Source: Escherichia coli
Lineage (GTDB): Bacteria; Pseudomonadota; Gammaproteobacteria; Enterobacterales; Enterobacteriaceae
NCBI RefSeq assembly: GCF_030013595.1
Contig: NZ_CP122768.1
Length of the DNA: 64,000 nucleotides
Direction: 5' to 3' (one strand)
Shown: positions 39,623-64,000 of the stretch, piece after piece
Layout of the letters: every line of letters begins with the position of its first letter
How positions within the stretch are numbered: the stretch's first letter is position 1
Program-made: the position numbers and the translations under genes
The notes under the pieces: model-generated
Seen by the model: only the letters and a program-made list of their open reading frames with translations
Database searches by the model: none
Told to the model about the DNA's origin: nothing

Positions 39623-40195
39623 TTAGCCAATACCAAACGCTCGGATTGAACCCAAATCCTCCAGATTGTTCAGATCCTCTTTCATTTCACGCTGACGGCG
39701 ATAAATCTCGTCATTGCGATCGACCTGAGCCTGCGCCATTGCTGCCGCCAGCTCCTGAAGCTGTGCCATTGTCAGAGTGACAAGGTTATTTGCTGCATCC
39801 CCCCATCCCAGCGTTGACCGCGTACCTGCAACCTTTGTCGCCATTGCCACGGGCGCAATACGACTTATTGAGTCTGCACCACCATTCCAGGTACGACCGT
39901 TCCATTCGAACGTGAACGGCTGCGCCTCCTGTTCTGTGCGCCATGCTTCGATTTCCTGGCGTTTGGCGGCTTTTGCTGCTTCCAGCATTTCAGGTGATAC
40001 AGTGAACGGGGCTATATCCCCCCATTTACCGCTTTGCAGCTCCTGCCAAATTTGCTGGCCTGTTGTTGCTGTGTCTTCTGGTGTAGATGTGTAGGGGATG
40101 AAATCTTTCATCCCCTCAAATAACACTTCACAGTCAATTGCGCCATTCTCCAGCCTGCGGGCGTTTTTGATTTCTTTTATTTTTATCCCATTCAT
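39623..40195 (-). CDS. putative tail fibre chaperone/accessory protein
   Basis: 190 aa directly downstream of a tail-fibre gene. Confidence 0.45.
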   Translation of the reverse strand: MNGIKIKEIKNARRLENGAIDCEVLFEGMKDFIPYTSTPEDTATTGQQIWQELQSGKWGDIAPFTVSPEMLEAAKAAKRQEIEAWRTEQEAQPFTFEWNGRTWNGGADSISRIAPVAMATKVAGTRSTLGWGDAANNLVTLTMAQLQELAAAMAQAQVDRNDEIYRRQREMKEDLNNLEDLGSIRAFGIG

Positions 40196-41598
40196 CAGGA
40201 AACTCTCACAAACAGACCGAAAATAAAATCGCTGGTCGCCTGAGTGCTGTTGCCCAGAGAGACATAGGCTCCCGAAAAGTGGCGTCCAGTATCCAGCACA
40301 TACCGTGGTGCTCCGTCATTCGACACTATAACAGCGCAGGGAATCAGAGTGCTGCCGCTTACGCTGTCACCACGTTTTATCGTATATTCATCAGTATTTG
40401 CTGCACGGTACGCGGCCTGAGTTAAGCCGCCAACTGCCACATCTCTGAATGGTACGTCGTACCACGGGCCAGCTATGTTATACAGCCATCTCGCACCATC
40501 TATCGCGGTTAAGTTTTGACTCAGGCATGTCCAGCGTATGTTCGTACTGTCCGCCCTGACCTCACAACAATACACGTCCTGATTAACCCCGTTAAAAATG
40601 ACAAACTTATCGCGCCTGTTTTGATTTTCATGCGTTGCTGTTTCCAGCATTTTTATCTCTACCTCTCCGCTAAAAACAACCCCTTCTATAATGTCCTTGG
40701 AATATGGGCCACCATATTGAACGACAAGATAGCGCCCCGGGGGAGTGGTCTGTACCCAAGAAGCAAATGTTGCTGATGTCGCGTATTTATCAAACTCCTT
40801 ACGTTGTGTGGGATACGCGCCATAACCGAAAGCTCCCGGAAGTGCCACACAACCTTCAGTTCGGTTGTAAATGTCTGTTTGTACATCCATCGTTGCAGCA
40901 CTTTTCAACCCCAGATTGTCTCGGGATTCCTGCTGAGCATCTTCCCCCTCTGCTGCAATTTCTGACAGGTGATTCGCCGTTTTCAGCGTTGCAGATAACG
41001 CAACATCAATATCATCTCTGGCCTGCTCTGCATCGGATGCGGCCTGTTTGGCGGCTTCAGCATCCTGCCTGACTTCTTCGGCGGTATCCTCAACCTGCGA
41101 GGCCAGCTGTTCAACGCGCTGCGTGTTTTCCTCCACAGCATTTGTATTCTGCTGAACATTATCTGCCAGCGTTTCAACCTGCTCTTTTATCAGAGCTGCC
41201 GCTTCAGCATGTTGCCCTGCCTGTCGTTCGCTTTCCGCTGCCGCTTCCGCGCTCTGCTGCGCCTGCACCACCAGTTCTTCGAACCGCTTAACAACATCTG
41301 GCTTCAGGTCGCCTTCATCGAGAGCGGTCAGGAAGTCGTTCAGCGTGCCGTGCTTTGAATCGTCGTAAACCGAAATATCACCGACACAATATTCTCTTTC
41401 AATACATGACCGAAGATAAACGTCATATCTTCCGGTCTGAGCCTCAAATGCATATTCTCCTGCCGGCCCCGTCACCACTGTTGCCACCGTTCTCATGACC
41501 ACTGCGGATGTATTCTGTCGGGCTTTCAGAATAATATGGTATCCGGACATGGGGAGTCCCGCACCATCCGTCAGCACACCCGAAATTAATACAGACAT
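40195..41598 (-). CDS. side tail fibre protein
   Basis: 467 aa; conserved prophage tail-fibre N-terminus, long coiled-coil, divergent C-terminal domain. Confidence 0.75.
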   Translation of the reverse strand: MSVLISGVLTDGAGLPMSGYHIILKARQNTSAVVMRTVATVVTGPAGEYAFEAQTGRYDVYLRSCIEREYCVGDISVYDDSKHGTLNDFLTALDEGDLKPDVVKRFEELVVQAQQSAEAAAESERQAGQHAEAAALIKEQVETLADNVQQNTNAVEENTQRVEQLASQVEDTAEEVRQDAEAAKQAASDAEQARDDIDVALSATLKTANHLSEIAAEGEDAQQESRDNLGLKSAATMDVQTDIYNRTEGCVALPGAFGYGAYPTQRKEFDKYATSATFASWVQTTPPGRYLVVQYGGPYSKDIIEGVVFSGEVEIKMLETATHENQNRRDKFVIFNGVNQDVYCCEVRADSTNIRWTCLSQNLTAIDGARWLYNIAGPWYDVPFRDVAVGGLTQAAYRAANTDEYTIKRGDSVSGSTLIPCAVIVSNDGAPRYVLDTGRHFSGAYVSLGNSTQATSDFIFGLFVRVS

Positions 41599-41622
41599 GT
41601 TTATTTCCTGATTCAGAAAACA

Positions 41623-42711
41623 TTAACCAAAATAATTGACGCCTTTTTTCTTGCCACTGGCTTTCCCCTTTGCAGAAATATCCGTGGTCAGTGACAGATT
41701 CAGCGTAAATCCCTGTCCCGGTACCAGTGAAAACTCCACAGACTCAGCCTGCCAGTGATGGTCCTCACGCACACCAAATCCCTGCGTGACAAAACGCATC
41801 TCCGCCCCTGCTTTCAGCAGTTCCGGCCTGCAGGGCAACGTTATCGTCATCTGGCGTCCGACTTTCTGCACACGTTTAACCTTCGACTCTGCACAGTGTT
41901 TTGCGGTGCCCTGGTCAGGCTGGGTAAACGGATGCCGCTTATCTGTTGACTCCACGTCAACTTTAACTTCACGTGTGCGTCCGTCACGGGCATCAAAATA
42001 CCGGACCCCAACTTTCCCGCTCTTTTTATCCCCCTTCGCACCACCCGCAGCGCCCTGTCGCTCACCTTCACGATAATCCCAGTCTGATACCATACCCGGT
42101 GTAATGGTTATCTCAGGCGCATTTCTGCCCCCCGTACTCTGTGATGCCCCGTATTCCAGAAATAACCAGTAGCCATTGGTCGGTTTACTGGTGGCGCCGT
42201 ACATACCTGCAATGCGGGACAAGAGGGCAGCATCAGATTCTGATGACTGCATCACCCACGGGATATGAATATCAGCAAGCACCGATGAGACGCGCGCCAC
42301 CAGATTATTTTCAGTGGCGATGGTGTTCACCAGGTCGCCCAGTGTGATATCGCTGAAAGCCCGGGTTTTCAGTGCGGTCACGTCTGCGCCATGTTTTGAC
42401 GCATTCATGGGGGCTGCGGTGGCATAAATGGTGAGCCGGCGGGGAGGACCACCGCTTGCCACCTGACAGACGGTAAAACTGCCTTTATTGACCAGATTTC
42501 CGTTGAACCCCAGTCCCAGCGTTAGCACCGCGCCTTTCGGTGGTAACGCCAGCGTCTCGCTGAACAGCGTTATCATCAGTTCATCGGACCGCTTTGTGGC
42601 TGCACCATTATCGGTATATCGCAGTTCAGCCAGCCCCCGTTTCAGGGCCTTCGTGATATCCTGGCCTTCCGCTGTCAGGCTGAAATCCGGCTGATATTCA
42701 TTCAGTCCCAT
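41623..42711 (-). CDS. P2 gpD-like tail protein
   Basis: 362 aa; synteny after gpU/gpX. Confidence 0.85.
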   Translation of the reverse strand: MGLNEYQPDFSLTAEGQDITKALKRGLAELRYTDNGAATKRSDELMITLFSETLALPPKGAVLTLGLGFNGNLVNKGSFTVCQVASGGPPRRLTIYATAAPMNASKHGADVTALKTRAFSDITLGDLVNTIATENNLVARVSSVLADIHIPWVMQSSESDAALLSRIAGMYGATSKPTNGYWLFLEYGASQSTGGRNAPEITITPGMVSDWDYREGERQGAAGGAKGDKKSGKVGVRYFDARDGRTREVKVDVESTDKRHPFTQPDQGTAKHCAESKVKRVQKVGRQMTITLPCRPELLKAGAEMRFVTQGFGVREDHHWQAESVEFSLVPGQGFTLNLSLTTDISAKGKASGKKKGVNYFG

Positions 42712-42920
42712 AACTGAAACGTCTCCTTCACTTCCGGTTCATATACCCAGTCCGGCAACACGATTTCCACTCCCGACGGATAGACCGGACCAAGGTCAGC
42801 CAGCCCGGGATTGGCTTCCAGTACCGCCGCCAGTGACTGGTTAAGCCCGGCACTGCCATAGTGTCTCTGACAGATGTCATCCAGCATATCGCCGTCAGTG
42901 GTCCGCCAGTTTTTCGCCAT
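42702..42920 (-). CDS. P2 gpX-like tail protein
   Basis: 72 aa; synteny. Confidence 0.8.
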   Translation of the reverse strand: MAKNWRTTDGDMLDDICQRHYGSAGLNQSLAAVLEANPGLADLGPVYPSGVEIVLPDWVYEPEVKETFQLWD

Positions 42921-43389
42921 AGTATTTCAGCTCCAGTGTGAACGTTTTGTTCTTTGGCGCCCCGCCGGGAAGAAAGGACGTGGTGTTATCTGAATAGGCG
43001 GTTGCCACGAAATACCCCATCACATCGCCTGTACTTGAGACCAGTAACTGCGGGGCCGGATTGTCATCCACCATCTGAACCAGCGTATCAAGGGCATCCA
43101 TTCCCACACCGTCACGAAATCCCGCATGCACCATGCCTTCAAGGGTTATTGTTCTGGCCCCCTTACCGGTATACTGCAGCAGGTCGTTTTTTCCGATAAG
43201 CTGCTGTTCATCCCATCGCCATTCCATAGTGCGCTTCATGGCGTTATAGGCTGCCGTATCAATACTGAATTCAAACTCACCAAACGACAGCATGACGCGG
43301 GAGGCGACATCCGTTAATGAACCCACCGCATCCCATGCTTCACGTTCAAGCCGGTTTACGCCCCAGCCCAGCAAATCCACCATGTTCAC
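42895..43389 (-). CDS. P2 gpU-like tail protein
   Basis: 164 aa; synteny after tape measure. Confidence 0.8.
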   Translation of the reverse strand: MNMVDLLGWGVNRLEREAWDAVGSLTDVASRVMLSFGEFEFSIDTAAYNAMKRTMEWRWDEQQLIGKNDLLQYTGKGARTITLEGMVHAGFRDGVGMDALDTLVQMVDDNPAPQLLVSSTGDVMGYFVATAYSDNTTSFLPGGAPKNKTFTLELKYYGEKLADH

Positions 43390-45044
43390 CCCCAGAATGC
43401 ATCACCATCGGTCATGCGGGAACGCTGACCAAAATTAATATCTCCCAGATTTTTCGTTACCCTGTCTGCCAGTTGTCCGGCATCCTCGCCGGGCTTCTGG
43501 GTGATGTTAAATTCCGCCCGTATCTGATACGTGGGTTTTACTTCCACCCGGCTGATACTGCCGGGGGTATGCTGAAGCGCTGAAAGGCGGTCAGCCTCCC
43601 CCGATGCGGGTTCCTGACGAGTTTTCTGTAGTTGATCGCGGGCAGCGCGAACACGCTCCCTCGCCCCATCAAAATCAGGTTCTTCCTTCGGTCCCAGCAA
43701 AGGATCGAGAAATGCATCAAACTTTTTATCGTCATGGTTCCAGGGGAGATAACCGCGGGTGTCTTTATAAGCCTGTACAACCTGTTTCGTCAGCTCCGGA
43801 TTTTTCCTGAGCAGTTCATCAAACCATTCACCCTGACCGTTTTTCTGCGCCACCGCTCTCGCCAGCTCAGGCGAACCCATTTTTGCCAGATATTCCAGCA
43901 CCTCTCGCCGGTCCTCCCGCGAATCATCCGCCAGCCCCCACTCAATGGCTTTCTGCGTTATTCCTGCAAGAACTTTTCCGAATTTCCACATCCACTCGGA
44001 CAAATCGATCAACGCCGGCAGGGCATCATCAAGGATAAATGCCTGAATCTTCTCAAGGCCACCCTCCTTAAACCAAGCCGCAAGATCATCCGTCACCTGT
44101 TGGATACGTGGCGCAAGCTCATTACCCAGTTGTCCGCTGATTTCATCAATGGAAGAACTCAAAACATTACGGAGATTTGACAGCGCCACATGCCCCTGAA
44201 CTGCGCCATCAGCCCCTTCTTTTGTCACCAGGTTATAGCGTTTCTGCTCACTGATAAGCTCCCGGAAGGTTTTTCCTGACAGACGCATCCAGGTCAGAAT
44301 TTTATTGGCCTCCCCCCCAAACAGCGCATCTGCCATCCCCGCCGCCTGCTGCTCATTCTCCACCTGCAGTAAGCGATCAAACAAAAATTCGACCTGTTCC
44401 TGGTTGTTTTTTCCGGCCATTACGCCCGCTTTCAGCCCCAGTTTACCGAATACCTCCTGAATGGCTCCTTTGTCCGTGGCACCATTATCATCGTCAAAAA
44501 CCTTGTTCCGGTATTCCTCAAACAGATCACCAATGTTTTCGCCGTTTAACCCCATCTGACGGCCCAGTGAATCCCACGCCGCATAGGTTTCGTAATCCAC
44601 CCCATAACTCCGGGCTATCCCTGCCCGCTCTGCCGTTTCCGAATTCCGGTTCAGTACCGCGCTGGCACCTGCTGCCAGCGTCAGCCCGGAACCAACAGAG
44701 AGCCCGAGTCCGGTTTTAAGAAATGTCCCTGCCCGTCCTTTCCAGCGTTCCAGGCGCTCTGCCCGTTCAAGCTGGCGATTAAATCGCTCCTGCTCCGCTG
44801 CAGCATCATTGATTTTCCGTTTCAGCTTTTCATACTGCTTTCGCAGATCGGTAATATCCTGCCCTGCCAGTACGCCAGCCTGAATTTTTCGCTTCAGTAC
44901 ATCCTGCTGACGCGTCAGGCGTGCCACTTCCTGTGTCGCACCAGCCAGACCTCGCTTCAGCCCCTCTGTCGATTTTTTCCACGACGGGTCAATAGTGCCG
45001 CCGATCCGGATATTCGCTCTGAGGTTATCGCCCACCGTTGCCAT
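43386..45044 (-). CDS. tail tape measure protein (gpT-like)
   Basis: 552 aa, helical; between gpE/E' and gpU. Confidence 0.9.
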   Translation of the reverse strand: MATVGDNLRANIRIGGTIDPSWKKSTEGLKRGLAGATQEVARLTRQQDVLKRKIQAGVLAGQDITDLRKQYEKLKRKINDAAAEQERFNRQLERAERLERWKGRAGTFLKTGLGLSVGSGLTLAAGASAVLNRNSETAERAGIARSYGVDYETYAAWDSLGRQMGLNGENIGDLFEEYRNKVFDDDNGATDKGAIQEVFGKLGLKAGVMAGKNNQEQVEFLFDRLLQVENEQQAAGMADALFGGEANKILTWMRLSGKTFRELISEQKRYNLVTKEGADGAVQGHVALSNLRNVLSSSIDEISGQLGNELAPRIQQVTDDLAAWFKEGGLEKIQAFILDDALPALIDLSEWMWKFGKVLAGITQKAIEWGLADDSREDRREVLEYLAKMGSPELARAVAQKNGQGEWFDELLRKNPELTKQVVQAYKDTRGYLPWNHDDKKFDAFLDPLLGPKEEPDFDGARERVRAARDQLQKTRQEPASGEADRLSALQHTPGSISRVEVKPTYQIRAEFNITQKPGEDAGQLADRVTKNLGDINFGQRSRMTDGDAFWG

Positions 45045-45161
45045 AACACTGCTTCCTCTCTTCCGCCTCTGCCAGCATTATTGCCACAAAATCCTCATAC
45101 GGCAGTGCCATCACATCTCCGGGTGACCACCCGAACCATACTCCGGCACGCCGTATCGCCA

Positions 45162-45470
45162 TCAGGATGTTTTCTTCTTCCGCCGGACCGGCGGCAGCAA
45201 AAAAACATTAAACTGCCGCTCCAGGGCCAGGTAATCACACGCTTCCATGTTCATCATGTCTGCCGCGTCCATCCCGCACAGACCGGCAATCATATCCAGA
45301 TCAGCCTCTGCTTCCGGTTTGGTACTCCGGCGATGCAACAGACGATCGCGGACGGTGGGCGCACGCATGGTGACGTGCGTGATCGTCTGTCCTGATGCGG
45401 TGACATACGGCACGGATAACACAATTTCCACGCAGCTGGCAGGAACACTGTTTTTTTCCGACATAAGCAT
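45162..45470 (-). CDS. tail assembly chaperone gpE (E' by -1 frameshift ending near 45027)
   Basis: 102 aa; slippery site near 3' end; -1 frame extends about 58 codons to a stop overlapping tape-measure start. Confidence 0.8.
   Translation of the reverse strand: MLMSEKNSVPASCVEIVLSVPYVTASGQTITHVTMRAPTVRDRLLHRRSTKPEAEADLDMIAGLCGMDAADMMNMEACDYLALERQFNVFLLPPVRRKKKTS
45199..45205 (-). other. programmed -1 frameshift site (TTTTTTG on minus strand)
   Basis: Run of 7 A on + strand inside gpE; same heptamer as the classical P2 E/E' site. Confidence 0.7.
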
Positions 45471-45522: not shown

Positions 45523-46041
45523 TTAAACCCGGATGATTTTTTTCAGATCCGACAGAACATTAACGCCGTTAATACGACGTACAAATTCCTCCGGAATAAT
45601 GCAGATGGTTTCCAGGCCATCGACAGCCTGACGGTAATAACTCAGTGACATTTCCACTGTCACCGAAGCCTCTGCCTGTGATGTTGCCGGACGTGCATCC
45701 GGCGTGATACTGGTGATCATCCCCTGCAGGGTTTCCACCTGTCCGCTGGTCGCATTTCCCACCCGATAAGCCTGGCGCACAACAATCTCCGGCGAATAAA
45801 GCCCGGCCTGCAATCCCAGCAGCGTAAGCATGGCAACATCATAACCATAAATCTTAAACGAACAGGTCAGCGCTTCCATGCCGTCATCCACTGCCACCGG
45901 TGCATCCATTGCGCCGGTTTTGATATCCACTGTCGTGATATTAATGGCAGGCGGCGTGTATTCATGCGCACCCTGAAGGCGGATCCCGCCAGGAAGAAAT
46001 AACGCCCATGCACGCAACAGTTTTTTTTCACCCGTAATCAT
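45523..46041 (-). CDS. tail tube protein (FII-like)
   Basis: 172 aa; follows sheath. Confidence 0.9.
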   Translation of the reverse strand: MITGEKKLLRAWALFLPGGIRLQGAHEYTPPAINITTVDIKTGAMDAPVAVDDGMEALTCSFKIYGYDVAMLTLLGLQAGLYSPEIVVRQAYRVGNATSGQVETLQGMITSITPDARPATSQAEASVTVEMSLSYYRQAVDGLETICIIPEEFVRRINGVNVLSDLKKIIRV

Positions 46042-47567: not shown

Positions 47568-48113
47568 TCAGGTATTTTGTGGCTGCTCAGGCCAGCTAAT
47601 ATTGTTGTAAGTGGTCTTATCCGTAATAGCGCTGAAATCCATCGCCTGCAGCGATTTCGCGTAAATGCGGTACGCTTTGAGCTTTTCCCTGTCTTCGTCA
47701 CTGATTAATCCCAGCAGCAGGTCTTTTTCCCATTCGCTGGTCATGATGCTGACCTGTTTTAACAGTGCATCACGCTCATCTTCCGCTTTAAGTTTGTAGT
47801 CAAAAACAAATTCATCATTGCGGTAGAACCAGTATCCCGACGCCTCAATGCGACGATTAGCGGTAATATCCGGCAACTCAATCACACTTTTATTTTCCGG
47901 GCAGATTGAGGTGATGTCTTTTCCGACCCAGACCACTTCGCCAGTTTCAACATAAATAACTTTCAGAGTGTCTGGCTGAAATTTTTCCTGGGCTTCGTGC
48001 CATTCCTGACCATCATCGGAGAACAGCCACAATAAAAATTTATGCTGTCGTGCCAGCTGGTATTGCTCAATTGTTTTAGGGTTTTGTGCCGTAAGATTTT
48101 TTAAGTGCATCAT
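47568..48113 (-). CDS. tail fibre assembly protein (gpG-like)
   Basis: 181 aa downstream of tail fibre. Confidence 0.7.
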   Translation of the reverse strand: MMHLKNLTAQNPKTIEQYQLARQHKFLLWLFSDDGQEWHEAQEKFQPDTLKVIYVETGEVVWVGKDITSICPENKSVIELPDITANRRIEASGYWFYRNDEFVFDYKLKAEDERDALLKQVSIMTSEWEKDLLLGLISDEDREKLKAYRIYAKSLQAMDFSAITDKTTYNNISWPEQPQNT

Positions 48114-48115
48114 GA

Positions 48116-49465
48116 TTACAAACTCGCTACATTTCGCCAGACACCATTAATCAGAACCTGCACCGGGCGTGCATTGGCCCAGTCCACACTTTCACCGCCA
48201 TCAACACCACTCAGTAAATGACCTGATGGCGCATTTCCTCCGCGTCCAATACCAATGGCACCTCCCAGACGCACATCCTGCACACCACCTGTTCTGGTCT
48301 GGTAACGGGCATCAAAATTTCCGTAGTTTGATGGAACCATCTGCCCGTTTACGGCAAACGTTATGCTGTTATCCGTATTCCTCTGACTGTAAAAATGCCA
48401 GCCAGAATCATCACCAAGCTCTGCAACAACAGGCCTTGAGGAATTTCCCCATAGACTAAATCTTGCACTCTTCGTGGAAGAACTGTCACACGACAGCGTG
48501 AACTTTCTTAAATTGCCGGTCGAGAGATTTTCTAATGCCAGCACACCGTTTTTTGTAAAACGAAAGGCGTTGTGTCCCTCTGCAAACACATTAATAACAC
48601 CGCGTCCGCCCCACTTAAAACCGGTATTGCTATCACAGAGCGTGAGTGATTTTTCACCCAGATTGTTCTCATTACCGATGCCAATCCTGTCACCAATAAC
48701 CACATCGCCCTGGCGCAGGTTAATGGAAATGGGCCGCAGTGGGCCAATATCACCATTTTCTCCATGGTCTTCCTGCGTGGGAATGAAGTGCAGGTAATCT
48801 TCTGAACGACGAAAAATCAGGCCAAAAGCCTCGTTGAAAATCCTCAGCGCATTAACACCACGGATTTTCAGTTCCCCGGTCATGGTGTCACCATCACGCT
48901 GAACGGCATTTTTTGCCTTGTCCACCGTGGGTTTTAATCCGAGGTTTTCAACAGCCTCATCCTTGTCTTCCACATCCGAAAGATTCTTTTTTCGTTGCAG
49001 ATAGCGTCTGTCTCCGATTTCCTGAGTAATAATGGCCCTGTCCGGATCAACTTCCAGCACCACGTTTTGTGCGTGCGTCAACCCAAGAACCAGCGTCAGA
49101 ATAACTTCCTTGATAACGGAGTCCGTCTGGTCTGGTAAAAAGGTGTCGGGATAACGTCCGTACGCGATAAGCGTACCTCTGTCGCTGATCATCCCCAGTT
49201 CACGAAGGGTTTTACCGGGGTATGATTTACAGTCAATCACAATATCCCCGCTGATGAAGCCCTCCTCCACCGCACCGTCGGAAAAGGGTTCCTGCCCGAA
49301 TTCGCCGTACAACGATGTCATTGCTGCCATTTCATCCGGCGTGGATGGCAATGCACGCCCGCCCCCGTCACCAAGCAGAACATGCCGGACGGTCACGGTT
49401 TGCCCGTTCTGATATGCTGCTTCAATTTCTGCAGCGCCGGACGTTGTCAGAATCAGTCCATTCAT
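48116..49465 (-). CDS. tail fibre protein (gpH-like)
   Basis: 449 aa following baseplate I. Confidence 0.8.
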   Translation of the reverse strand: MNGLILTTSGAAEIEAAYQNGQTVTVRHVLLGDGGGRALPSTPDEMAAMTSLYGEFGQEPFSDGAVEEGFISGDIVIDCKSYPGKTLRELGMISDRGTLIAYGRYPDTFLPDQTDSVIKEVILTLVLGLTHAQNVVLEVDPDRAIITQEIGDRRYLQRKKNLSDVEDKDEAVENLGLKPTVDKAKNAVQRDGDTMTGELKIRGVNALRIFNEAFGLIFRRSEDYLHFIPTQEDHGENGDIGPLRPISINLRQGDVVIGDRIGIGNENNLGEKSLTLCDSNTGFKWGGRGVINVFAEGHNAFRFTKNGVLALENLSTGNLRKFTLSCDSSSTKSARFSLWGNSSRPVVAELGDDSGWHFYSQRNTDNSITFAVNGQMVPSNYGNFDARYQTRTGGVQDVRLGGAIGIGRGGNAPSGHLLSGVDGGESVDWANARPVQVLINGVWRNVASL

Positions 49466-50052
49466 ACACCTGCCTCACTCTGCCCGCCTGTGGGCACTGT
49501 CTTTGTTGTCACACCGGTACTTCTGATTTTTTCTGTCGCCATCACATAGCCGTAACCAAATCCACGCCCTGTGCTGTTCCCGTAAACGTGAATACTGAAC
49601 CAGCTGCGCAGATTTTTGGCACGGAGCACCGCATGCTTCAGATCCTGATGATCATTCATCAGCACCGGTAAATCTTTCTGCTCCACGTTCAGACGGAAGG
49701 TATACGGCTCCCCGGGTGGGGTCTGCTCATACCACTCAACAATCTGCGACCGGAAGGGACTGTCAGCCAGCGATGCCATCAGCGCCGCTTTAGTCCCTCT
49801 GTGGCGGTGGATGTATGCAGCACGTTTTATCGCAGACCGTTTTTCCGCCTCCGTCCAGTGTTCATTCCAGGTGTCCACCGCCATTTCCCAGGCCAGCCAT
49901 GGCAGCAATTCAGCAGGACATAAATCGGGATTTTTGACATAGCGGATCAGACATACTGCGATTTCCGCCAGCATATCACCGGCGGTACTGTCCACCACCC
50001 GCTCTGCCCGGCTGGCACTGACCGGCAGTATGCTCCTGATATCGTCATTCAT
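49462..50052 (-). CDS. baseplate protein gpI-like
   Basis: 196 aa; synteny. Confidence 0.8.
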   Translation of the reverse strand: MNDDIRSILPVSASRAERVVDSTAGDMLAEIAVCLIRYVKNPDLCPAELLPWLAWEMAVDTWNEHWTEAEKRSAIKRAAYIHRHRGTKAALMASLADSPFRSQIVEWYEQTPPGEPYTFRLNVEQKDLPVLMNDHQDLKHAVLRAKNLRSWFSIHVYGNSTGRGFGYGYVMATEKIRSTGVTTKTVPTGGQSEAGV

Positions 50053-55114: not shown

Positions 55115-55450
55115 TCAGGCGTGGCTGATGGCACTTCCCACAAATGCGTTGGCTTTTTTCACCGCATCCACCGAACCAGGCCAGACCAGCGACTCAGTGG
55201 CAAACGTACCGCTTTTGTAGTACGTCAGCATGGGCTCGGTCCCGGCAAGCGCCAGAGCCAGCACACCCACAGCCGTTCCGGCTTTCTGACCATCCCAGAC
55301 AACCAGTTTTCCGGTGGCGTCATCCACCATCAGTGGCGTCAGTGCAGGTGTGGCAGCACTGATACCACTGGTGGCTGTTGCGGTATGCGCCGGATCGCTT
55401 CCGGCAAAAATGCGCGCATCTGCACGCTTTTCCGTGGTGGTTTTAATCAT
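55115..55450 (-). CDS. head decoration protein (lambda gpD family)
   Basis: 111 aa immediately upstream of major capsid. Confidence 0.85.
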   Translation of the reverse strand: MIKTTTEKRADARIFAGSDPAHTATATSGISAATPALTPLMVDDATGKLVVWDGQKAGTAVGVLALALAGTEPMLTYYKSGTFATESLVWPGSVDAVKKANAFVGSAISHA

Positions 55451-55488: not shown

Positions 55489-57105
55489 TTACGGCATACT
55501 CATCAGCAGGTCTTCCTCACCGCGCCCGGCAGTTCCGCCACCGGAAACCGCACTGGCAGCATGCTGTGCCATAAAGCGATCAAAAAGTGTTTCCTGTGAC
55601 GGTTGCGATGCCGCCGGCGCGGCTGCCAGCAGCGTTTTCGCCTGCGCCACCGTCATTCCCGGTTGTTCTGTCAGTGCCTGTGCAAGTTGCTCGCGCCCTT
55701 TTGCCTCCGGCAGCGCCATAATCTGATCGCCGACACTTGCAGAACCAGCAACCGGTGCCGCCGCCAGTAACGTTTTGGCCTGGTCAACGGTCATTCCCGG
55801 CTGTTCAGCCAGCGCCTGCGCGAGTTGTTCACGCCCTTTTGCTTCCGGTAACGCCATAATCTGATCGCCTGTGCCTGCAGCACCAGCAGCAGGGGCTGCC
55901 GCCAGAAACGCTTTCGCCTGCTCCACCGTCATCCCCGGCTGACCTGCCAGCATCTGTGCCAGTTGCTCACGCCCCTTTGCTTCCGGCAGCCCCATAATCT
56001 GATCGCCCGTGCTGTCAGTACCGGCAACCGGCGCAGCTGCAAGCAACGTTTTCGCCTGCTCAACCGTCATTCCTGGCTGACCTGCCAGCATTTGCGCCAG
56101 TTGCTCGCGCCCTTTCGCCTCCTGACAATTCAGGATCCCCATCACGCGCTGATTTTCCTGGGCCACCGCTTCAGCAACGGTGAGATTTTTAACAGTCATT
56201 GCATTCTCCTTCGTAACAGAGTCATTCAGTACAGAAACCATCACTTCAACGGCATCTGCAGCATTAATCAGTTGATCAGCCAGGCCTGCATCAATGCCTG
56301 CCTGACCGTCATAAACGGCAGCCTCGGTATTCATCACCGCCTCTGAACTCAGCCCCGTATAAAGCGCCACCTTGTCGACAAACATCCGGCGGGCCTCATC
56401 AATACGGCGCTGAAAATCTGCACGCACACCTGCCGGCAATGCCTGAATACTGTTGCCGTCAACCTTATGCTGCCCGGAGTAAATCAGCGTGATGTCCACC
56501 CCTTCCTGTGCCAGTTGTTTCTCGTAACTGGTGTGCGCCATCATCACGCCAATCGAACCAATTTTTGCCGTCTGCGTGACCAGCCGACGGGTACAGGCTG
56601 CCGCCAGCAACATGGCGGCTGAACAGGCCATGTCATTACACAGCGCCCACACGGGCTTCTGTTCCCGCAGACGGTAAATCATGTCAGCACAGTCAAACGC
56701 CCCGGCAGCCTGACCGCCCGGGCTGTCGATATCCAGCAAAATGCCGCGCACATCCGGATCATTCACCGCCATCTGAAGGCGGGCCGTCAGGCCGTCATAG
56801 CCAGTCATGCCGGAGTAAGGCCGCAGGGTACCCAGTTTATGCACCAGCGTGCCGCTCACCGGAAGAATGGCGATGCCATTCTTCACCTGGTAACTCTTTG
56901 CCGGACGCTGACCGCCCGCCATATAGTCAGTCACAGCCAGTTGCATACCATCAGCATCAAGCTGAACAGCCTGCTGAGGAACGGCAAGGCTGCCGGCACC
57001 CATCTCTTTACCCAGCGCGCAAAAGAAAACCCGCGCATAGGCGGGTTCCAGTAAAAGCGGCTCATTAAATGCCATGGCGGCAATATGCGATAAATTACGA
57101 CGCAT
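55489..57105 (-). CDS. head maturation protease/scaffold (S49/ClpP-like, gpC-like) with repeat-expanded C-terminus
   Basis: 538 aa; N-terminal peptidase domain, four 46-aa tandem repeats in C-terminal half. Confidence 0.85.
   Translation of the reverse strand: MRRNLSHIAAMAFNEPLLLEPAYARVFFCALGKEMGAGSLAVPQQAVQLDADGMQLAVTDYMAGGQRPAKSYQVKNGIAILPVSGTLVHKLGTLRPYSGMTGYDGLTARLQMAVNDPDVRGILLDIDSPGGQAAGAFDCADMIYRLREQKPVWALCNDMACSAAMLLAAACTRRLVTQTAKIGSIGVMMAHTSYEKQLAQEGVDITLIYSGQHKVDGNSIQALPAGVRADFQRRIDEARRMFVDKVALYTGLSSEAVMNTEAAVYDGQAGIDAGLADQLINAADAVEVMVSVLNDSVTKENAMTVKNLTVAEAVAQENQRVMGILNCQEAKGREQLAQMLAGQPGMTVEQAKTLLAAAPVAGTDSTGDQIMGLPEAKGREQLAQMLAGQPGMTVEQAKAFLAAAPAAGAAGTGDQIMALPEAKGREQLAQALAEQPGMTVDQAKTLLAAAPVAGSASVGDQIMALPEAKGREQLAQALTEQPGMTVAQAKTLLAAAPAASQPSQETLFDRFMAQHAASAVSGGGTAGRGEEDLLMSMP
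55590..56145 (-). repeat. four in-frame tandem repeats of 138 bp inside the protease/scaffold gene
   Basis: Motif CG(T/C)TTTCGCCTG... recurs at 55633, 55771, 55909, 56047 (period exactly 138); protein repeat LPEAKGREQLAQ.LA.QPGMTV.QAK.LLAAAP.AG. Confidence 0.85.
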
Positions 57106-58666
57106 CGACTTTTTCTCCCGTTGTCTGTCGGATCTGCTGCTGAAACGTGTCCTTTATCCAGATGGGGCGGGGAAGACCCGCTGCCTGTCGCTCCTGGCTT
57201 TCACGCAGTTGCTGGCGGAAAATCTCCTGATAGTCATCGCCCATCAGGGCCAGCTCTTTCTCATACGTGCTTAAACCACCTTCAATACGCATCACCGCTT
57301 CCTGCACTTCCTTAAGGCCATCAATCGCCATGCGACCGGCACCAATCCACTCGGCACGACACCATCCGGAACGGGCCTCCCAGAATGAAAAACGGGATTT
57401 CGGCGGGCGGATCACACCGCGAATAAGTGCTTCCTCCAGCCAGCAGGCAAACATCTGTGATGCCAGTCGACTGGCCACAAATTTTCGTTTGCCCATAAAA
57501 TACCGCCACGACTCATTGGCGGATGCCCTGGCACTGGAATAACTGACCTGTGAATAATCACGGGAAAGCTGTTCATAGGACACCCCCAGTCCGGCAGCGA
57601 TGTAACGTAACAGCGCCTTTTCCAGTTCAGAGAAACCATTATCTGCATTCTGCGCTGTCTGCAGATTCAGTGAATCCCCCGGATAAAGATGCGGAATACG
57701 GACCCCGCCCAGCTTTACCGTATTGGTGGCGTAATAACGCGCGTAGCCTTTCATGATGGTGTTCAGGGGATTTTTACCGCCATCTCCCACCCCGGCGATA
57801 TATTCAAATGCTTTTTCCGAATCCAGCGTGGATTCAATCGTCGCGGCATACATCGCCCGCACCACCGCCGACTGCAGTTGCGTGGCCTGCAGTGTGTCGA
57901 GCATCTTGAGGCGCTCCATGACAGAATAAAACTGGTTGGCCCCGCGCGTCTGTCCGTCCTCCTGCGGCTGAAACACATGGATCATTCCCGGTCGCCCGGA
58001 GGGCAGCGTCGCCGCAATCCGCGTCCAGTTGCTGACACCGTAACCGGGCCAGTCATCTTCCTGAACATGGTAGGCCAGTGCTTTTCCGTACCGGTTGATT
58101 TCCACCCCGGCACGCATAAAACGATCGCCGGTACCATAACCGGGTGTACTGACACGTTTCGGGCTGATGGTTTTGAATTTCGTCCGGAATAATGACGTGG
58201 ATTCCGTATCCCATACGGGCTGGACAAAAATTTCACCGTTAAATGTATGAACGCCCACCCCTTCACGAATAAATTCGGTAAACGAGCGACGCCCCTCCAC
58301 ATCCATCGAACCAAACACCGGATCGCAGAATTCCATCCACGCCGCCTCCACATCTTCAATAAAGGCATGTGAATCGGCTTCCGACATCCCCAGCCAGCGC
58401 CAGTTGGGCCGGTAACTCAGACGAAACATGTGTCCGACGATATGGTCTTTATGAATTTCAACGGCGTTTGCGGCAATACCGTTATTGCGGACCAGATCAT
58501 CCGCACGGGCGTTACCCAGCTGAATGGAAGGTAAGAGCGCCACGTCGGCACTTTCCGGTGCAGGCAGCCATTCCGCAAGCTGCCCGCCAAATCCGGTACC
58601 CCCTCCGGAATACCCCATACTCTGCCGCAGTGGCTGCCCGTGAAGATCCACCAGTTCCCCGTTCAC
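57095..58666 (-). CDS. portal protein (lambda gpB family)
   Basis: 523 aa; synteny. Confidence 0.9.
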   Translation of the reverse strand: MNGELVDLHGQPLRQSMGYSGGGTGFGGQLAEWLPAPESADVALLPSIQLGNARADDLVRNNGIAANAVEIHKDHIVGHMFRLSYRPNWRWLGMSEADSHAFIEDVEAAWMEFCDPVFGSMDVEGRRSFTEFIREGVGVHTFNGEIFVQPVWDTESTSLFRTKFKTISPKRVSTPGYGTGDRFMRAGVEINRYGKALAYHVQEDDWPGYGVSNWTRIAATLPSGRPGMIHVFQPQEDGQTRGANQFYSVMERLKMLDTLQATQLQSAVVRAMYAATIESTLDSEKAFEYIAGVGDGGKNPLNTIMKGYARYYATNTVKLGGVRIPHLYPGDSLNLQTAQNADNGFSELEKALLRYIAAGLGVSYEQLSRDYSQVSYSSARASANESWRYFMGKRKFVASRLASQMFACWLEEALIRGVIRPPKSRFSFWEARSGWCRAEWIGAGRMAIDGLKEVQEAVMRIEGGLSTYEKELALMGDDYQEIFRQQLRESQERQAAGLPRPIWIKDTFQQQIRQTTGEKVDAS

Positions 58667-58872
58667 AGCCCCACTCCTGCCGGGCCGCGACGCCGTCCGG
58701 ATACGCCCAGCGCACTTTCCAGCTCTTCAATATACTGACGCAGTTCACCAATCGTCGCCCGCGAATACTGAACCTGACGCCCGTCCTTGCTGACGGAAAC
58801 CACAGCACGTCCGATCATCAGTTCATGTAATGCCCGGCGGGCATCACAAAGCATTTCATGCGTATAAACCAT
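58663..58872 (-). CDS. head-tail joining protein W
   Basis: 69 aa; ...RQYIEELESALGVSGRRRGPAG resembles lambda gpW C-terminus. Confidence 0.85.
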   Translation of the reverse strand: MVYTHEMLCDARRALHELMIGRAVVSVSKDGRQVQYSRATIGELRQYIEELESALGVSGRRRGPAGVGL

Positions 58873-58875: not shown

Positions 58876-60792
58876 TTATCCTCCACTCAGTGCAGCCGCG
58901 ATTTCTTCCAGACTCATCTCATCGTCGTCCTGCTCATCTCTTCTGGCACGGGCCAGTGCTTCAAGATCCAGCTGCCACCGCTGAACTGAAATACGCAGGG
59001 CAGCATAGGCATATACCAGGCAGTCGAGGGCTTCGTTGCGTCGCCCTTTTTTATCCCACAGCAGTTTCACCCTGCCATTAACCACCTTCTCCACCAGCTC
59101 TTCCGCCACGATCTGACGCGCCTCTTCTTCCGAAAAAATGTCGGGGTTATCAGGAAAACGGAAGGTGTACGGGGCGGCTTCACTGGCAGAGACCACTGGC
59201 AGGGCAAAACGGGCGTACAGCATTTCCTTGACGGTATCGGAGCCCACCTCACACAAAAACACACCACGCTGGTTGCGCTTTTTGGGCATGGTGATCACCG
59301 GCTTGCCGTACACCGATGCCCCTTTTATGGGAAGCACAAAAAAAGTGCCGTGTTTCCTTGAACGCTGATACACAATGTCCTGGTCGATACCACCGGTATC
59401 CCAGCAGACACGGGAAATGGAAATTTCAGTACCGTCAGCATGACGATATTTTTTCCGGATCACCGTATCAACACGTTTAAGGGTGTCCTCGTCTTCCGGT
59501 CGCCCCATGATAATTTGCTTATCAATCAGAAAGGCTTCTTCGCCGGGAGCCCAGCCCCAGACATAAATTTCATAGCGATCTTTCTGGGAGTCGATCCCGG
59601 CGGTCAGGTAAACCACCCGCAGGGGAACCTGCGCACCATAGTGGCAGACCTTTTCCAGTAACAACTCAAAACTCAGCTTTTCTGCCACAGCCTCTTCATA
59701 GGGCTCCCCGAGCGTGGTGTTAATAAACGTCTTGACGCCGTTCGGATCCTTCAGCGCATCCAGCCAGTCATAAACAATCTGTACCCAGGTGGTGAACGGA
59801 CTATACGCCGTCCAGATGTGGAAAGTGACGGAGCGCGGCGGTGGCATCTCCTCATCGCCGGCGCTGTAAAATGCCAGGCCGTCGCGCGTCCACATCCCGG
59901 TATTGTCACAAATCCAGCGCCCGTCGGTCTGGTCAAGTTCCGACTGCCGGATCACACAGCCATTATGTTCACACAGGTAATACACCGTTTCCGGTTTACC
60001 CTTCTCCCATTTCAGGCCAAATGGCGTCGCATCATCGCCAAACTTCAGATACTGGGCCTCCCCGCAATGAGGGCAAGGGACATAAAACCGCATGAAATGC
60101 GCTGATTCATTTGCGGCTTTCTCAATCTGGCAGGAGCCTTTAATTTTTGGCGTTGAGCCACGTATGGATTTAGGCCATACCGAGCCTTCGATACGCTTAT
60201 CGCCAAGCAGCGTCGGCGAACCTTCTTTTTCCACATCCGGTTCAAACGAGGAGAGTTCGTCATAGCAGACCACATCCACAGATTTTTCACGGTAGTTTTT
60301 AGCAGCGGCGCCGCCAAGGCACCAGAAACCCACACCGGAGGAAAAACGCTTCAGGGTGAGTGTATTATCGCGGTGCTTTCTTCCGAACCATGGAGCCAGC
60401 TCCAGCAATGCAGGAACATCCCTGATCGTTGGCTCAACATGAGATTTCATGAAATCTTCTGCAGCAGAATCTGTTGGCTGAAAAAGCAGACTGTTACGGG
60501 ATTTATGCTCAATAAAATAAGCCTCCACCCCCAACAGCATTTTGGTGTAACCAACGCGCGCCGATTTAATCAGATTAACGGTGCGGATCCGGTCATTTCC
60601 CATGCTGTTCATAATGGCAACCTGAAACGGCAGGGTTTCCCATTGTCCGGGAGTGTATGAAGATTCTTTCGGCAGATAATAATGTTGATCAGCCCACTGA
60701 ACCGTCGTCAGTGGAACCGGAATATTGAGAGATAAAAGCCCTGTAGCTATCGCACCGGCTGCATTAGCTGCCTTCTGTGCGTCTGAAATCAT
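58876..60792 (-). CDS. terminase large subunit (lambda gpA family)
   Basis: Track ORF 652 aa; internal Met at 60792 reduces overlap with small subunit; VEWADANYYLPKES-type motif. Confidence 0.92.
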
Positions 60793-61312
60793 CAATCCAC
60801 CTGCCCACGTTTTCACCGGCTTTAGCTGCAACATTGGAGGCTTTCGCGATTTCAGTTTTCACCACATCAAGGTGTGACGGTGAAATATCCGGATATTTAC
60901 GCTGTAATGTCAGCGGCACACGTACAAGTATCCCCGAAATCTCCTGTGCCACACGTTGCAGAATGAAGGTAAACAATTCTGTTTCCAGCACCAGCCCTTC
61001 TTCACGGGCATTTTTCAGCTCCTGTGCGTCAGCCTGTGCTTTGGTTAACCGGTAGCGTTCATAGTCAATGGTGCCGGGTTGTAAATCTGATTCTGCAGTC
61101 GCACGCAAATCTTCCAGTTCTTTGCGGAGCTTTTCGTTTTCGATATCTTTTTCCCGCTGCGCATACCACTCAATGGCTTCTGCAGTATTGAACATGGCTT
61201 CGATACCTTTGCCTCCCCCCGACAAAACTCTCAGCCCCTGACTTTGCCAGCCAGTGATTGTTCTGACATCGCACTCAAAAATTTCCGCCAGTTTCTTTTT
61301 GTTAACCTTCAC
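60764..61312 (-). CDS. terminase small subunit (lambda Nu1 family)
   Basis: 182 aa; [26 protein letters not shown] vs lambda Nu1 MEVNKKQLADIFGASIRTIQNWQEQG, similarity throughout. Confidence 0.9.
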
Positions 61313-61319: not shown

Positions 61320-61520
61320 ATTCCTCACAAAAAGAAGAAAGGATCTCAAAACGCTTTTTTCAGCGAAAAATCACCGCTGCCAGATCCTTTCTTTTTTTAA
61401 GAAAACTCTATTAAACAACAGGTTAGCCAGAAGAAGAACGGATCTGCTTTTTCCCTGAAAATTTTCATAAATAGCGCGTTTTTGCGCGTCCCCAGACCCT
61501 CGGTGTTTCAGGTTCCAGAA
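61320..61520 (-). other. cos region (cosB-like Nu1-binding and IHF elements; cosN nearby)
   Basis: Minus strand has CGCTATTTATGAAAATTTTC and CCGTTCTTCTTC, both present in lambda cos; the segment corresponding to lambda cosN differs. Confidence 0.55.
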
Positions 61521-61612: not shown

Positions 61613-62011
61613 TTACTCACGAATCAGGCGAGCACTCTTACCATTCATTTCAATACGCGAATACTGCGGTTTACCATCAATGATGTCTGTCATCACGAAC
61701 ATCTCACCCGGCTGCAGTTCAACTACTGCGCCTTCCGGCAATTTCATGCAGGCAAATACCGGACAACCAGGATGACGATCATCTTCTGTTGCTTCCAGCA
61801 TTGACTCACCAAACCACTCCGTCGTGGCGCGACCATCAGCTGCTTTGTAGTGGATCAAGTACTGGTTTTCGCCATCCGCATACTGCGCGCGGGCTTTAAC
61901 CTCACCCCATTCATCACTGATGCGCATCTCCACCAGTTGAGACAACTCAAACTTAAACGGAGCAGCATCAGCACCAATTACAATCGGTTTGCTTTCTGTT
62001 TTTTCCATCAT
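61613..62011 (-). CDS. hypothetical protein between lysis cassette and cos
   Basis: 132-aa ORF, no recognisable motifs. Confidence 0.4.
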   Translation of the reverse strand: MMEKTESKPIVIGADAAPFKFELSQLVEMRISDEWGEVKARAQYADGENQYLIHYKAADGRATTEWFGESMLEATEDDRHPGCPVFACMKLPEGAVVELQPGEMFVMTDIIDGKPQYSRIEMNGKSARLIRE

Positions 62012-62182: not shown

Positions 62183-62359
62183 TCAGTTCTGCAGACACTG
62201 CCGAACACCGTCGACAATTTCACAGACCAGAGAAGCGGTATCGAAAAGCTGGCGCGCTTTATCCAGGCTGACGCATCCCACCAATAAAAAAGGCACCAGT
62301 ATCGCTACCCATTTCGCCGCCGTTCGCGGCATTCTGTGTGTCCAGTGTTTTCGCGTCAT
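62183..62359 (-). CDS. candidate small lipoprotein (58 aa)
   Basis: Hand-translated MTRKHWTHRMPRTAAKWVAILVPFLLVGC...; basic n-region, hydrophobic core, lipobox LVGC; mature 30 aa with 3 Cys; below track cutoff. Confidence 0.35.
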   Translation of the reverse strand: MTRKHWTHRMPRTAAKWVAILVPFLLVGCVSLDKARQLFDTASLVCEIVDGVRQCLQN

Positions 62360-62560: not shown

Positions 62561-62607
62561 AAACTCAAAACCCCGGACTGTTCCAGCAGCCGGGGTTTTG
62601 TTTTTTT
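62561..62607. terminator. strong bidirectional rho-independent terminator
   Basis: CCCCGG..CCGGGG stem flanked by AAACTCAAAA upstream and TTTTGTTTTTTT downstream. Confidence 0.7.
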
Positions 62608-62887
62608 ATTTACTGCCCTGGGTGCGGCATCTGGCTATTTCACCCCTGGCTTTACTGTCACCGCGACAGATACAACGCACCGTGTCTCCGGTCAACGTGG
62701 TAATGTAAGCCTCATCCTCTTTTTCTACCGGAATACATGGAATATCCCCGCCCCGGCAATACTCAATTTTTGCTGCAAGATGAGTGTCACGCGGATAGAA
62801 CTCCAGACGATACATATCTCCCAGGACATGCACTTCCTCAACCTGGCGACCATCCTCAGTTACGGTAATTTTTTTCAGTGCGTACAT
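62606..62887 (-). CDS. small Cys-rich protein of unknown function (93 aa)
   Basis: ATG at 62885-62887 with GGAGG 5 nt upstream; C-terminus has CxxxxC...CxC...C; flanked by terminators. Confidence 0.5.
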   Translation of the reverse strand: MYALKKITVTEDGRQVEEVHVLGDMYRLEFYPRDTHLAAKIEYCRGGDIPCIPVEKEDEAYITTLTGDTVRCICRGDSKARGEIARCRTQGSK

Positions 62888-62957: not shown

Positions 62958-63341
62958 CTATCGCTTCAATTGAAAATGAGGCCCGTCTTTCAGTGTTTTC
63001 CAGTCCCCGCCCCATTCGATGGCAGTTCCCAGCTCTGCGGCAGCCTGCTTAAATGCCTGCGCGATTTTCTCGTACAGAGGCCAGTCCCATGACACCTGGC
63101 TGCCAACCCAGGCCACAACATCCACCGCATCACCGGTCAGGTGGCGGCTGTTCATGGTCTGGCTCTTACCTTCTGCAACCAGCTGTTTCTGGCGTTCTTT
63201 CGTGCGCAGGCCCTCCGTAATACCGAAATCAACCTCCGACAGTTCAAGGGCGCGGCGAACTACAGCAACCAGCTGTGGTTTGACGCCTTCCAGATTTTTC
63301 TCGCTCCGGCGGCTGAATCTGAATTTACCCGACATATTCAC
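62958..63341 (-). CDS. endolysin, peptidase M15 family
   Basis: 127 aa with zinc-binding pattern SRHLTGDAVD ... DGPHFQL. Confidence 0.8.
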   Translation of the reverse strand: MNMSGKFRFSRRSEKNLEGVKPQLVAVVRRALELSEVDFGITEGLRTKERQKQLVAEGKSQTMNSRHLTGDAVDVVAWVGSQVSWDWPLYEKIAQAFKQAAAELGTAIEWGGDWKTLKDGPHFQLKR

Positions 63342-63574
63342 CTCAACAATGGAAAGATTCTTGTGACGTTCCCGCGTGCGCGTATCACCAGCACGCAGAA
63401 CAGCAGATTAAAAAACACATCCAGCCAGCCCGTTGCTAACGGGCGACCACACAGATAGCTGAGAGGCGAAAAGGCATACAGCAGCGTCAGCAGCCAGGCC
63501 AGCCATGACATCAGCGGTTTATGCCTGGAATCGCGACGACGATAAAAAAGAGCGTCAGCACGATAACCGTGCAT
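63338..63574 (-). CDS. small membrane protein of lysis cassette (possible holin/antiholin)
   Basis: 78-aa track ORF with hydrophobic segments; 4-nt overlap with endolysin start. Confidence 0.4.
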   Translation of the reverse strand: MHGYRADALFYRRRDSRHKPLMSWLAWLLTLLYAFSPLSYLCGRPLATGWLDVFFNLLFCVLVIRARGNVTRIFPLLR

Positions 63575-63601
63575 AACGCCACATTCAGTAATCCGGGAAG
63601 G

Positions 63602-63994
63602 TTACTTAACATTACCGCCTCCTCCGCCTCGCAGGCGGGAGAACCGTCCTGACACCAGCGATGCGATATCCTGCTGGTGGATGAACGACAGAATCTTCAC
63701 CGACACCACAGACACCAGCACTGCACACAGCGCGTCGACAGATTTACTGTGAAGCCCCAGTTTTTCGACCAGATAAGACGCCATCACATCCGCCCCCAGT
63801 ACGCCGATAATAAACGACACCAGAAAATGCGCCGCCACCCGCCAGACAGAAAGCGCCTGCGGCATCGTTGCCACAAACAACGCCCCCGCGAACGCACCAA
63901 ACACAATCCCGAAATCCGTTCCGGTGAACAGCCCGAATACCGTCGCCCCTCCGAGCGCAGCCGCCGTGCCGGAACCGGATAAGGGTTCAGACAT
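63602..63994 (-). CDS. putative holin-like multi-TM membrane protein
   Basis: 130 aa, Gly/Ala-rich hydrophobic helices; heads the lysis cassette. Confidence 0.45.
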   Translation of the reverse strand: MSEPLSGSGTAAALGGATVFGLFTGTDFGIVFGAFAGALFVATMPQALSVWRVAAHFLVSFIIGVLGADVMASYLVEKLGLHSKSVDALCAVLVSVVSVKILSFIHQQDIASLVSGRFSRLRGGGGGNVK

Positions 63995-64000
63995 ACTTTT

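Follow-up and report, generated by a model that had tools for sequence, protein, structure and literature searches.

Late region of a probable phiP27-family prophage with a lambda-type head and a P2-order contractile tail at potB/potC in Escherichia coli

Results

Insertion site and boundaries

We analysed a 64,000-nt stretch of the Escherichia coli chromosome (NZ_CP122768.1; GCF_030013595.1), referred to as the window, whose right-hand part probably holds the late genes of a lambdoid prophage inserted between potB and potC. The host genes potA (37412-38548) and potB (38532-39395) precede the prophage, and from 39623 to the end of the window nearly all long open reading frames (ORFs) are densely packed on the minus strand, with most adjacent late genes overlapping or almost touching and a negative GC skew throughout the region. 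In the direction of these genes, the region runs from a lysis cassette through a group of small genes, a cos-like region and the virion genes to a side tail fibre (Stf) gene pair next to the attachment (att) core (Table 1), and the same late layout was found in the related prophages of ETEC1732, STEC383 and CEA224S. The head and tail operons contain no inserted genes, whereas P2 has orf30 and fun(Z) at such places. No tRNA was found in the window, and no Rfam family between 37000 and 64000.

The left boundary could be placed at a 14-bp core. Alignment of prophage-free E. coli genomes to the window stops at 39377, approximately 18 bp before the potB stop codon, and the junction is marked there by the att core. 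The same 14-mer, TGAATAAGAAGGTG, is present at both ends of the CEA224S prophage, in the potB 3' end and just upstream of potC, and the CEA224S junction is 99.8% identical to that of the window. The C-terminus of PotB is phage-encoded in this chromosome and reads …KKVSDIDN before the stop, where the uninterrupted gene would read …KKVELE. STEC383 carries its related prophage at the same integration site, and potC is a published insertion site of Stx phages (PMC8065619). As the whole prophage separates potCD from the potAB promoter, expression of potCD must depend on sequence at the phage end.

The original prediction had placed this element at 39623-64000. Its left junction really lies at the att core inside potB, and its right limit is the end of the window and not of the prophage. 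Beyond the holins, the related prophages continue for approximately 20 kb or more with tRNAs, a methyltransferase, Q, RusA, replication and immunity genes and an integrase.

Packaging and head genes

The genes Nu1-A-W-B-C-D-E-FI-FII follow one another in lambda order, just as had been predicted; all lie on the minus strand, and their Pfam families exceed gathering thresholds in 9/9 cases. Phage 21, lambda and Gifsy-1 have the same order from Nu1 to FII. From A to FI, amino acid (aa) identity to phage 21, ev017 and Gifsy-1 averages approximately 70%. The major capsid protein shares 82% identity with that of phage 21, compared with 54% for the E. coli phage vB_EcoM-720R5 (720R5) and 34% for Vibrio phage Vb_VaM_Valp1 (Valp1), and has no match in Hafnia phage yong2. 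A fall in identity to phage 21 comes just after the capsid gene E, with FI at 38% and FII at 28%. The likeness to phage 21, lambda and Gifsy-1 does not extend to the tail, which has the order Z-U-V-G-T-H-M-L-K-I-J in those phages but is contractile in this prophage.

A candidate cos lies approximately 160 bp upstream of Nu1, where the sequence CTATTTATGAAAATTTTCAGGGAAAA matches phage 21 at bases ~25-50 and the flanking motif CTATTTATGAAAATTTT is conserved. Although the flanks of cos are thus shared with phage 21, the cohesive-end bases are not: where the nick is expected, 12 bases depart from GGGCGGCGACCT, the lambda/21-type ends. The exact lambda cosN is not there, and no cosN match with two or fewer mismatches was found at the expected place. 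We infer the cos assignment from these sequence comparisons.

Gene C / Nu3 contains a tandem repeat at 55614-56122 (138-bp unit, 3.7 copies, 80% identity; Tandem Repeats Finder). The repeats encode approximately four 46-aa units (…GDQIMxLPEAKGREQLAQxLAxQPGMTVxQAKxLLAAAP…) in the scaffold part of the protein, and the repeat-bearing C of ETEC1732 is 98% identical over its full length.

Neck

Two genes that the original prediction did not name, encoding proteins of 240 and 183 aa, sit between FII and the spike gene V, and these four genes overlap or lie no more than 12 bp apart. A profile built from the 183-aa protein and ten homologues was searched against the PDB and matched the pyocin R2 collar protein PA0615 (6u5f) over its full length (E=2.3e-11). 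An AlphaFold (AF2) model of the 183-aa protein had a predicted local distance difference test score (pLDDT) of 77, and its top Foldseek matches were the collar of pyocin R2 and the terminator of phage Mu (6u5j, 6u5f, 9khy), followed at lower ranks by lambda gpU, T5 p142 and other terminators (8bcp, 3fz2, 8iyd). From the collar profile, the Foldseek matches and the gene's place between the FII/completion genes and V, the protein is predicted to be the tail terminator.

The 240-aa protein is a putative tail completion protein. It gave no PDB match by single sequence or family profile, and Foldseek with its model returned nothing significant. The order of FII, completion protein and terminator parallels FII-Z-U of lambda; no profile match was found between the 240-aa family and phage 21 gpZ, or between the 183-aa family and phage 21 gpU. 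Comparison with P2 gave E=0.13 for the 183-aa family against the gpR profile, E=0.27 for the 240-aa family against gpS, and nothing by BLASTP. Neither neck protein matched an NCBIfam or PADLOC family. The closest sequenced necks are those of yong2 and Citrobacter phage Chris1, with 41-43% aa identity for the completion protein and 48-51% for the terminator.

Contractile tail

The tail shares with P2 both its protein families and the order V-W-J-I-H-G / FI-FII-E-E'-T-U-D, and the P2 head genes Q P O N M L are replaced here by lambda-family head genes. The tail assembly chaperones E and E+E' are linked by a -1 frameshift at a T7-G slippery run (45198-45205), from which the open -1 frame extends to 45025, overlapping the start of T. 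The annotated E/E' site of P2 matches this frameshift site.

A P2-like tail had been predicted, and the families, the gene order and the E/E' pair bear this out. The tail is not a close relative of P2: the best Peduovirus-type matches, pro147 and STYP1, are only approximately 34-35% identical at the aa level over approximately 56-57% of the tail polyprotein. No homologues of P2 R and S were found, and X lies between U and D in this prophage, 720R5 and Valp1, unlike its position in P2. This placement of X is also the order of the R2 pyocin cluster. Compared with P2, the region also lacks an ogr-like gene after D and the non-essential orf30 and fun(Z).

The closest sequenced tails belong to yong2 and Chris1, whose tail polyprotein is 49% identical at the aa level over 93% of the query. 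Their sheath proteins are 60-62% identical to that of the prophage, and FII of yong2 36%. Sheath identity was 62% to yong2, 46% to vB_EcoM-569R10 and approximately 37% over 72% to Burkholderia P2-like phages. In yong2 and Chris1 the tail genes stand in a permuted order (V, sheath ... D, then W J I H G) and the head is of another type, with a fused protease-capsid gene and a portal only 23% identical.

On the minus strand, terminator-like hairpins with T tails separate G from the sheath gene (47532-47549) and the tube gene from E (45487-45504), and a third lies just after the endolysin gene (62923-62943). The G/sheath hairpin occupies the position of the V-operon terminator of P2.

Phages and prophages with the same virion gene order

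The complete virion order of the prophage (terminase, W, portal, C, D, E, FI, FII, completion, terminator, V, W, J, I, H, sheath, tube, E, T, U, X, D) is also that of 720R5, considered here together with 569R10, 783R5 and 705R4. Valp1 has the same complete order with an extra PAAR gene after V, and Wolbachia phage WO has it from terminase A to baseplate protein I, also with a PAAR gene after V. The original prediction that the architecture is known from other phages was thus correct. At the sequence level, 720R5 and Valp1 are distant, with approximately 38% aa identity across the tail and the low capsid identities given above, and neither has the terminal Stf/DUF4376 pair. The 720R5 record (ON470604) is labelled 'complete genome', but it is 20 kb long, begins inside the terminase gene and ends in the host gene yecA; it looks like a prophage fragment and not a phage genome.

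Outside the virion genes, the prophage resembles phiP27 (NC_003356), an Stx2e-converting phage. The two have in common the holin-holin-M15 endolysin cassette, the 132-aa protein, the lipoprotein ORF and the terminal Stf and DUF4376 genes next to att. The endolysin is 98% identical at the aa level to phiP27 L30, and the 132-aa protein is 97% identical to L33 over residues 1-97. In contrast, the terminase of phiP27 is P27-type, its head HK97-type and its contractile tail of the Mu/SfV type, and stx2e lies upstream of its lysis genes; no toxin gene was found in the window. The siphovirus-type prophage of CEA224S, which shares the att core and has a 92% identical endolysin, combines an HK97-type head with a siphotail of lambda type that ends in J-Lom-Stf-DUF4376. 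One phiP27-type backbone is therefore found with three virion modules (HK97 head with lambda siphotail, HK97 head with Mu-type myotail, lambda head with P2-type myotail), each followed by the Stf/DUF4376 pair. Of the mosaic features this one is the most informative, and the original prediction had missed it.

Tail fibres

The original prediction of an additional side fibre and a partner gene next to att agrees with our identification of a PF08400 Stf protein and a DUF4376 protein, in addition to the fibre H and its assembly protein G. A phiP27 match of approximately 86% nt identity covers G and part of H (to 48992) and falls on the tail-fibre and fibre-assembly genes of phiP27. Stf is 56% identical at the aa level to phiP27 L56 overall and nearly identical over the first ~255 residues, and the DUF4376 protein is 70% identical to the CEA224S protein in the same position.

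Lysis cassette and accessory genes

Neither the first holin nor the endolysin is disrupted, and the predicted M15 endolysin was confirmed (PF13539). The second holin differs from that of ETEC1732 by the loss of one T in a homopolymer run (T6 here vs T7 in ETEC1732 by DNA alignment); this frameshift may be genuine and inactivating, or it may reflect a sequencing error in the homopolymer. The original prediction had found no clear spanin, and within the window this holds. In a scan of 61300-64000, a single lipobox ORF was found, with no C-terminal transmembrane segment, and no ORF combined an N-terminal transmembrane segment with a long periplasmic part. With a frameshift in the second holin and no recognisable spanin, the element might lyse poorly.

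The accessory genes are four small genes between the endolysin gene and cos, together with the Stf pair. None of the four small genes matched a defence, toxin or solved-structure family (NCBIfam, PADLOC, PDB). The 132-aa protein had no Pfam, NCBIfam, PADLOC or PDB match, and the 93-aa protein, beyond its PHROG, no further family or PDB match. A homologue of the small lipoprotein is present in phiP27 at 3674-3862, where it is unannotated; the annotated L32 is in another frame. We considered the 37-aa protein and the lipoprotein as a miniature two-component spanin. This is unlikely, since the hydrophobic segment of the 37-aa protein is C-terminal and leaves almost no periplasmic part, and the mature lipoprotein, at approximately 30 aa, is not proline-rich.

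In phage SerU-LTIIb (KU052038), eltIIbA/B lie between the endolysin gene and a nu1 fragment (3759-4908). The eltIIb slot of this LT-IIb prophage is the slot of the four small genes in the present prophage.

Prevalence and intactness

At least 80% of the late region, at 95-99% identity, was found in 61 of 5,426 complete E. coli genomes (~1%). The best-matching copies come mostly from pig isolates and are inserted at potB/potC or ompW. All packaging, head, neck and tail genes of the present copy (26/26) are full length, with 97-100% aa identity to ETEC1732 except for Nu1 (90%).

To the left of the prophage, base composition is uneven over window positions 1-27000, where blocks of 55-59% GC are surrounded by low-GC stretches at 1-5000, 10000-13000 and 24000-27000. 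These stretches may be other mobile elements, perhaps including the 'prophage A' of the original prediction.

Table 1. Features of the prophage region, listed from the end of the window towards potB
Feature	Position	Strand	Basis and remarks
First holin (Phage_holin_8)	63602..63994	-	PF16931 E=3e-20
Second holin	63338..63612	-	phrog_217, only profile positions 22-90; 1-nt deletion in T run 63544-63549
M15 peptidase endolysin	62958..63335	-	PF13539 E=3e-12
93-aa protein	62606..62887	-	phrog_33497
37-aa protein, C-terminal hydrophobic segment	62361..62474	-	phrog_4493
Small predicted outer-membrane lipoprotein	62183..62359	-	lipobox LVGC, mature ~30 aa; phrog_7528 E=1e-34
132-aa protein	61613..62011	-	phrog_1935; = phiP27 L33
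cos-like region	61440..61505	-	CTATTTATGAAAATTTTCAGGGAAAA, match to phage 21 bases ~25-50; sequence comparison
Terminase small subunit Nu1	60764..61312	-	PF07471 E=1e-84
Terminase large subunit A	58876..60792	-	PF05876 and PF20454
Head-tail joining protein W	58663..58872	-	PF02831 E=4e-25
Portal B (lambda family)	57095..58618	-	PF05136 E=2.5e-95
C / Nu3 prohead protease-scaffold	55489..57105	-	S49 peptidase PF01343 E=2e-33
Head decoration protein D	55115..55450	-	PF02924 E=1e-22
Major capsid protein E	54017..55045	-	PF03864 E=8e-66
FI DNA-packaging protein	53601..53966	-	PF14000 E=5e-13
FII-type head-tail joining (head closure) protein	53197..53601	-	PF05354 E=6e-13; phrog_82
Putative tail completion (Neck1) protein, 240 aa	52494..53216	-	possibly HK97-gp10-like
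Predicted tail terminator / collar protein, 183 aa	51931..52482	-	phrog_1072 (PHROG of unknown function)
Baseplate spike V	51324..51947	-	phrog_9992 E=1e-23; weak gpV Apex motif
Baseplate wedge W / gp25 family	50934..51290	-	PF04965 E=1.6e-15
Baseplate protein J	50045..50959	-	PF04865 E=9e-22
Baseplate protein I	49462..50052	-	PF09684 E=8.5e-36
Tail fibre H, 449 aa	48116..49465	-	PF12571 N-terminal domain E=1.5e-14; phrog_6859, phrog_454
Tail fibre assembly protein G	47568..48113	-	PF02413 E=5e-23
Tail sheath, 491 aa	46038..47513	-	PF04984, PF17482, PF22671
Tail tube	45523..46041	-	PF04985 E=3e-22
Tail assembly chaperones E and E+E'	45025..45470	-	PF10109 E=6e-12
Tape measure T, 552 aa	43386..45044	-	phrog_3654 E=5e-215 and several tape-measure PHROGs
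gpU-like tail protein	42895..43389	-	PF06995 E=1e-27
Tail protein X	42702..42920	-	PF05489 E=2e-19
gpD-like baseplate hub / late control protein	41623..42711	-	phrog_52 E=1e-94; weak PF05954
Stf-type side tail fibre, 467 aa	40195..41598	-	PF08400 1-134 of 134, E=5e-54; phrog_2636 E=1e-172
DUF4376 protein, presumed side-fibre assembly/distal	39623..40195	-	PF14301 E=4e-16; phrog_1141 'tail fiber protein' E=4e-84
att core TGAATAAGAAGGTG	39364..39377		14 bp; prophage/host junction within potB 3' end

Discussion

We interpret 39364-64000 as the late half of a lambdoid prophage at potB/potC, in which a phiP27-family backbone carries a virion module of an old type with a lambda-family head and a P2-order tail, and we give this interpretation a probability of approximately 85%. 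The late region is an ordinary one and probably intact, from a type of lambdoid prophage already known, and none of its features would surprise a phage genomicist. Because the whole gene order recurs in 720R5 and Valp1 and, from A to I, in WO, the combination of lambda-type head and P2-type tail appears to be an old, coherent virion lineage and not a fresh hybrid of lambda and P2. Affinities differ along the module, the head being close to phage 21 and the tail closest, at 49%, to yong2 and Chris1, which suggests that the exchange of the head block with siphovirus lambdoids is younger than the divergence of the tail.

The original prediction had called the element mosaic. This stands insofar as head and tail differ in their affinities, while a hybrid of lambda and P2 overstates how recent the combination is, given that the order is shared with 720R5, Valp1 and WO. 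A single described lineage for both head and tail, without accessory genes, had been named as the outcome that would speak against a mosaic. The comparison returned a head much closer to phage 21 than to the phages that share the tail (for the capsid, 82% against 54%, 34% and no match), and accessory genes are present.

The gene content suggests how the late half would operate. In the relatives a Q gene lies upstream of the lysis cassette, and Q-dependent transcription would proceed through the whole ~25-kb block, with the terminator-like hairpins presumably read through in the antiterminated late transcript. Terminase would cut at cos and fill a lambda-type, D-decorated head, whose portal W and FII would close. 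FII would then dock on a hexameric terminator capping the sheath and tube of a separately assembled tail. The resulting particle would bear P2-type H fibres and possibly also Stf fibres, and lysis would be brought about by holin and M15 peptidase without a canonical spanin.

Several observations count against this interpretation. The lost T puts the first 22 codons of the second holin, encoding its first hydrophobic segment, out of frame, and no gene of the prophage region matched a spanin PHROG, Pfam or NCBIfam family. For the present copy, the early region, the integrase and Q lie beyond 64000. At the DNA level, no member of the phage collection spans the head-tail joint (megablast with the whole region; blastn with 49400-56400), and only the head or only the fibres were matched. 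The functional steps are read from the genes, and the assumed contact between FII and the terminator is modelled on that of FII and U in lambda. In the literature we found no paper containing both 'lambda-like head' and 'P2-like tail', and no description of this prophage type.

The lysis genes raise the question of whether the element is a cryptic remnant that has lost particle production or release, its structural genes persisting since the decay is recent. The 1-nt deletion in the second holin relative to ETEC1732, the failure to find a spanin and the location of the early half outside the window would all fit, and decay does occur in this family, because in the STEC383 copy V, E, D and C are frameshifted and Stf is truncated. 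Still, we regard a remnant as rather unlikely for the present copy: the 26 structural genes are all full length and, apart from Nu1, at least 97% identical to those of ETEC1732, the first holin and the endolysin are undamaged, and the difference in the T run could be a sequencing error. Viable phiP27, moreover, has a 98% identical endolysin and two annotated holins but no annotated spanin.

Two other explanations concern the joint between head and tail. That a lambda-like and a P2-like (Peduovirus) phage recombined recently is suggested by the families and the order of the two halves, which match lambda and P2, and by head genes 70-82% identical to those of phage 21. Such an event is very improbable when the tail is only approximately 34% identical over approximately 57% of the query to Peduovirus-type phages, R and S homologues are missing, X lies between U and D, and the neck genes are like those of neither parent; this joint and order also occur in Vibrio, Wolbachia and E. 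coli phages that differ by 46-66% in protein sequence. We find it harder still to believe that two elements lie side by side, a lambdoid fragment with the lysis and head genes and an independent P2-like prophage or R-type tailocin. R-type pyocins do have the same V-to-D order and collar protein family (the terminator is homologous to R2 collar PA0615), and terminator-like hairpins stand at the G/sheath and tube/E boundaries. However, no integrase, att, regulator or lysis gene separates the blocks, FII is joined to V through the two tightly spaced or overlapping neck genes, a single att core lies beyond the Stf genes, and the contiguous order is kept in the complete Valp1 genome and in the 720R5 record. 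Unlike the pyocin, the prophage has a full head and packaging set, and as its tail genes directly adjoin these lambda-type head and terminase genes it does not qualify as an R-type tailocin. The late half of a single lambdoid prophage therefore remains our preferred interpretation.

Within that interpretation, two more speculative ideas concern the accessory genes. The Stf/DUF4376 pair next to att could be a portable host-range cassette that works on three unrelated tails, namely the lambda-type siphotail of CEA224S, the Mu-type contractile tail of phiP27 and the P2-type contractile tail described here. Docking through PF08400 would then not be specific to the tail type, and the particles would be dual-fibre myoviruses with both H/G and Stf; we put this forward tentatively and think it less probable than not by a good measure. 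More doubtful again is the idea that the small lipoprotein, alone or together with the 37-aa peptide, could take the place of a spanin in disrupting the outer membrane.

Conclusions

Our results place the left end of the prophage in the potB 3' end, show that only the late half of the element lies in the window, and distinguish core from accessory genes. They also illustrate modular exchange, in that one backbone carries three virion modules in different strains. Because a related prophage carries LT-IIb genes there, the slot between the endolysin gene and Nu1 is worth watching in the surveillance of enterotoxigenic E. coli (ETEC) and Shiga toxin-producing E. coli (STEC).

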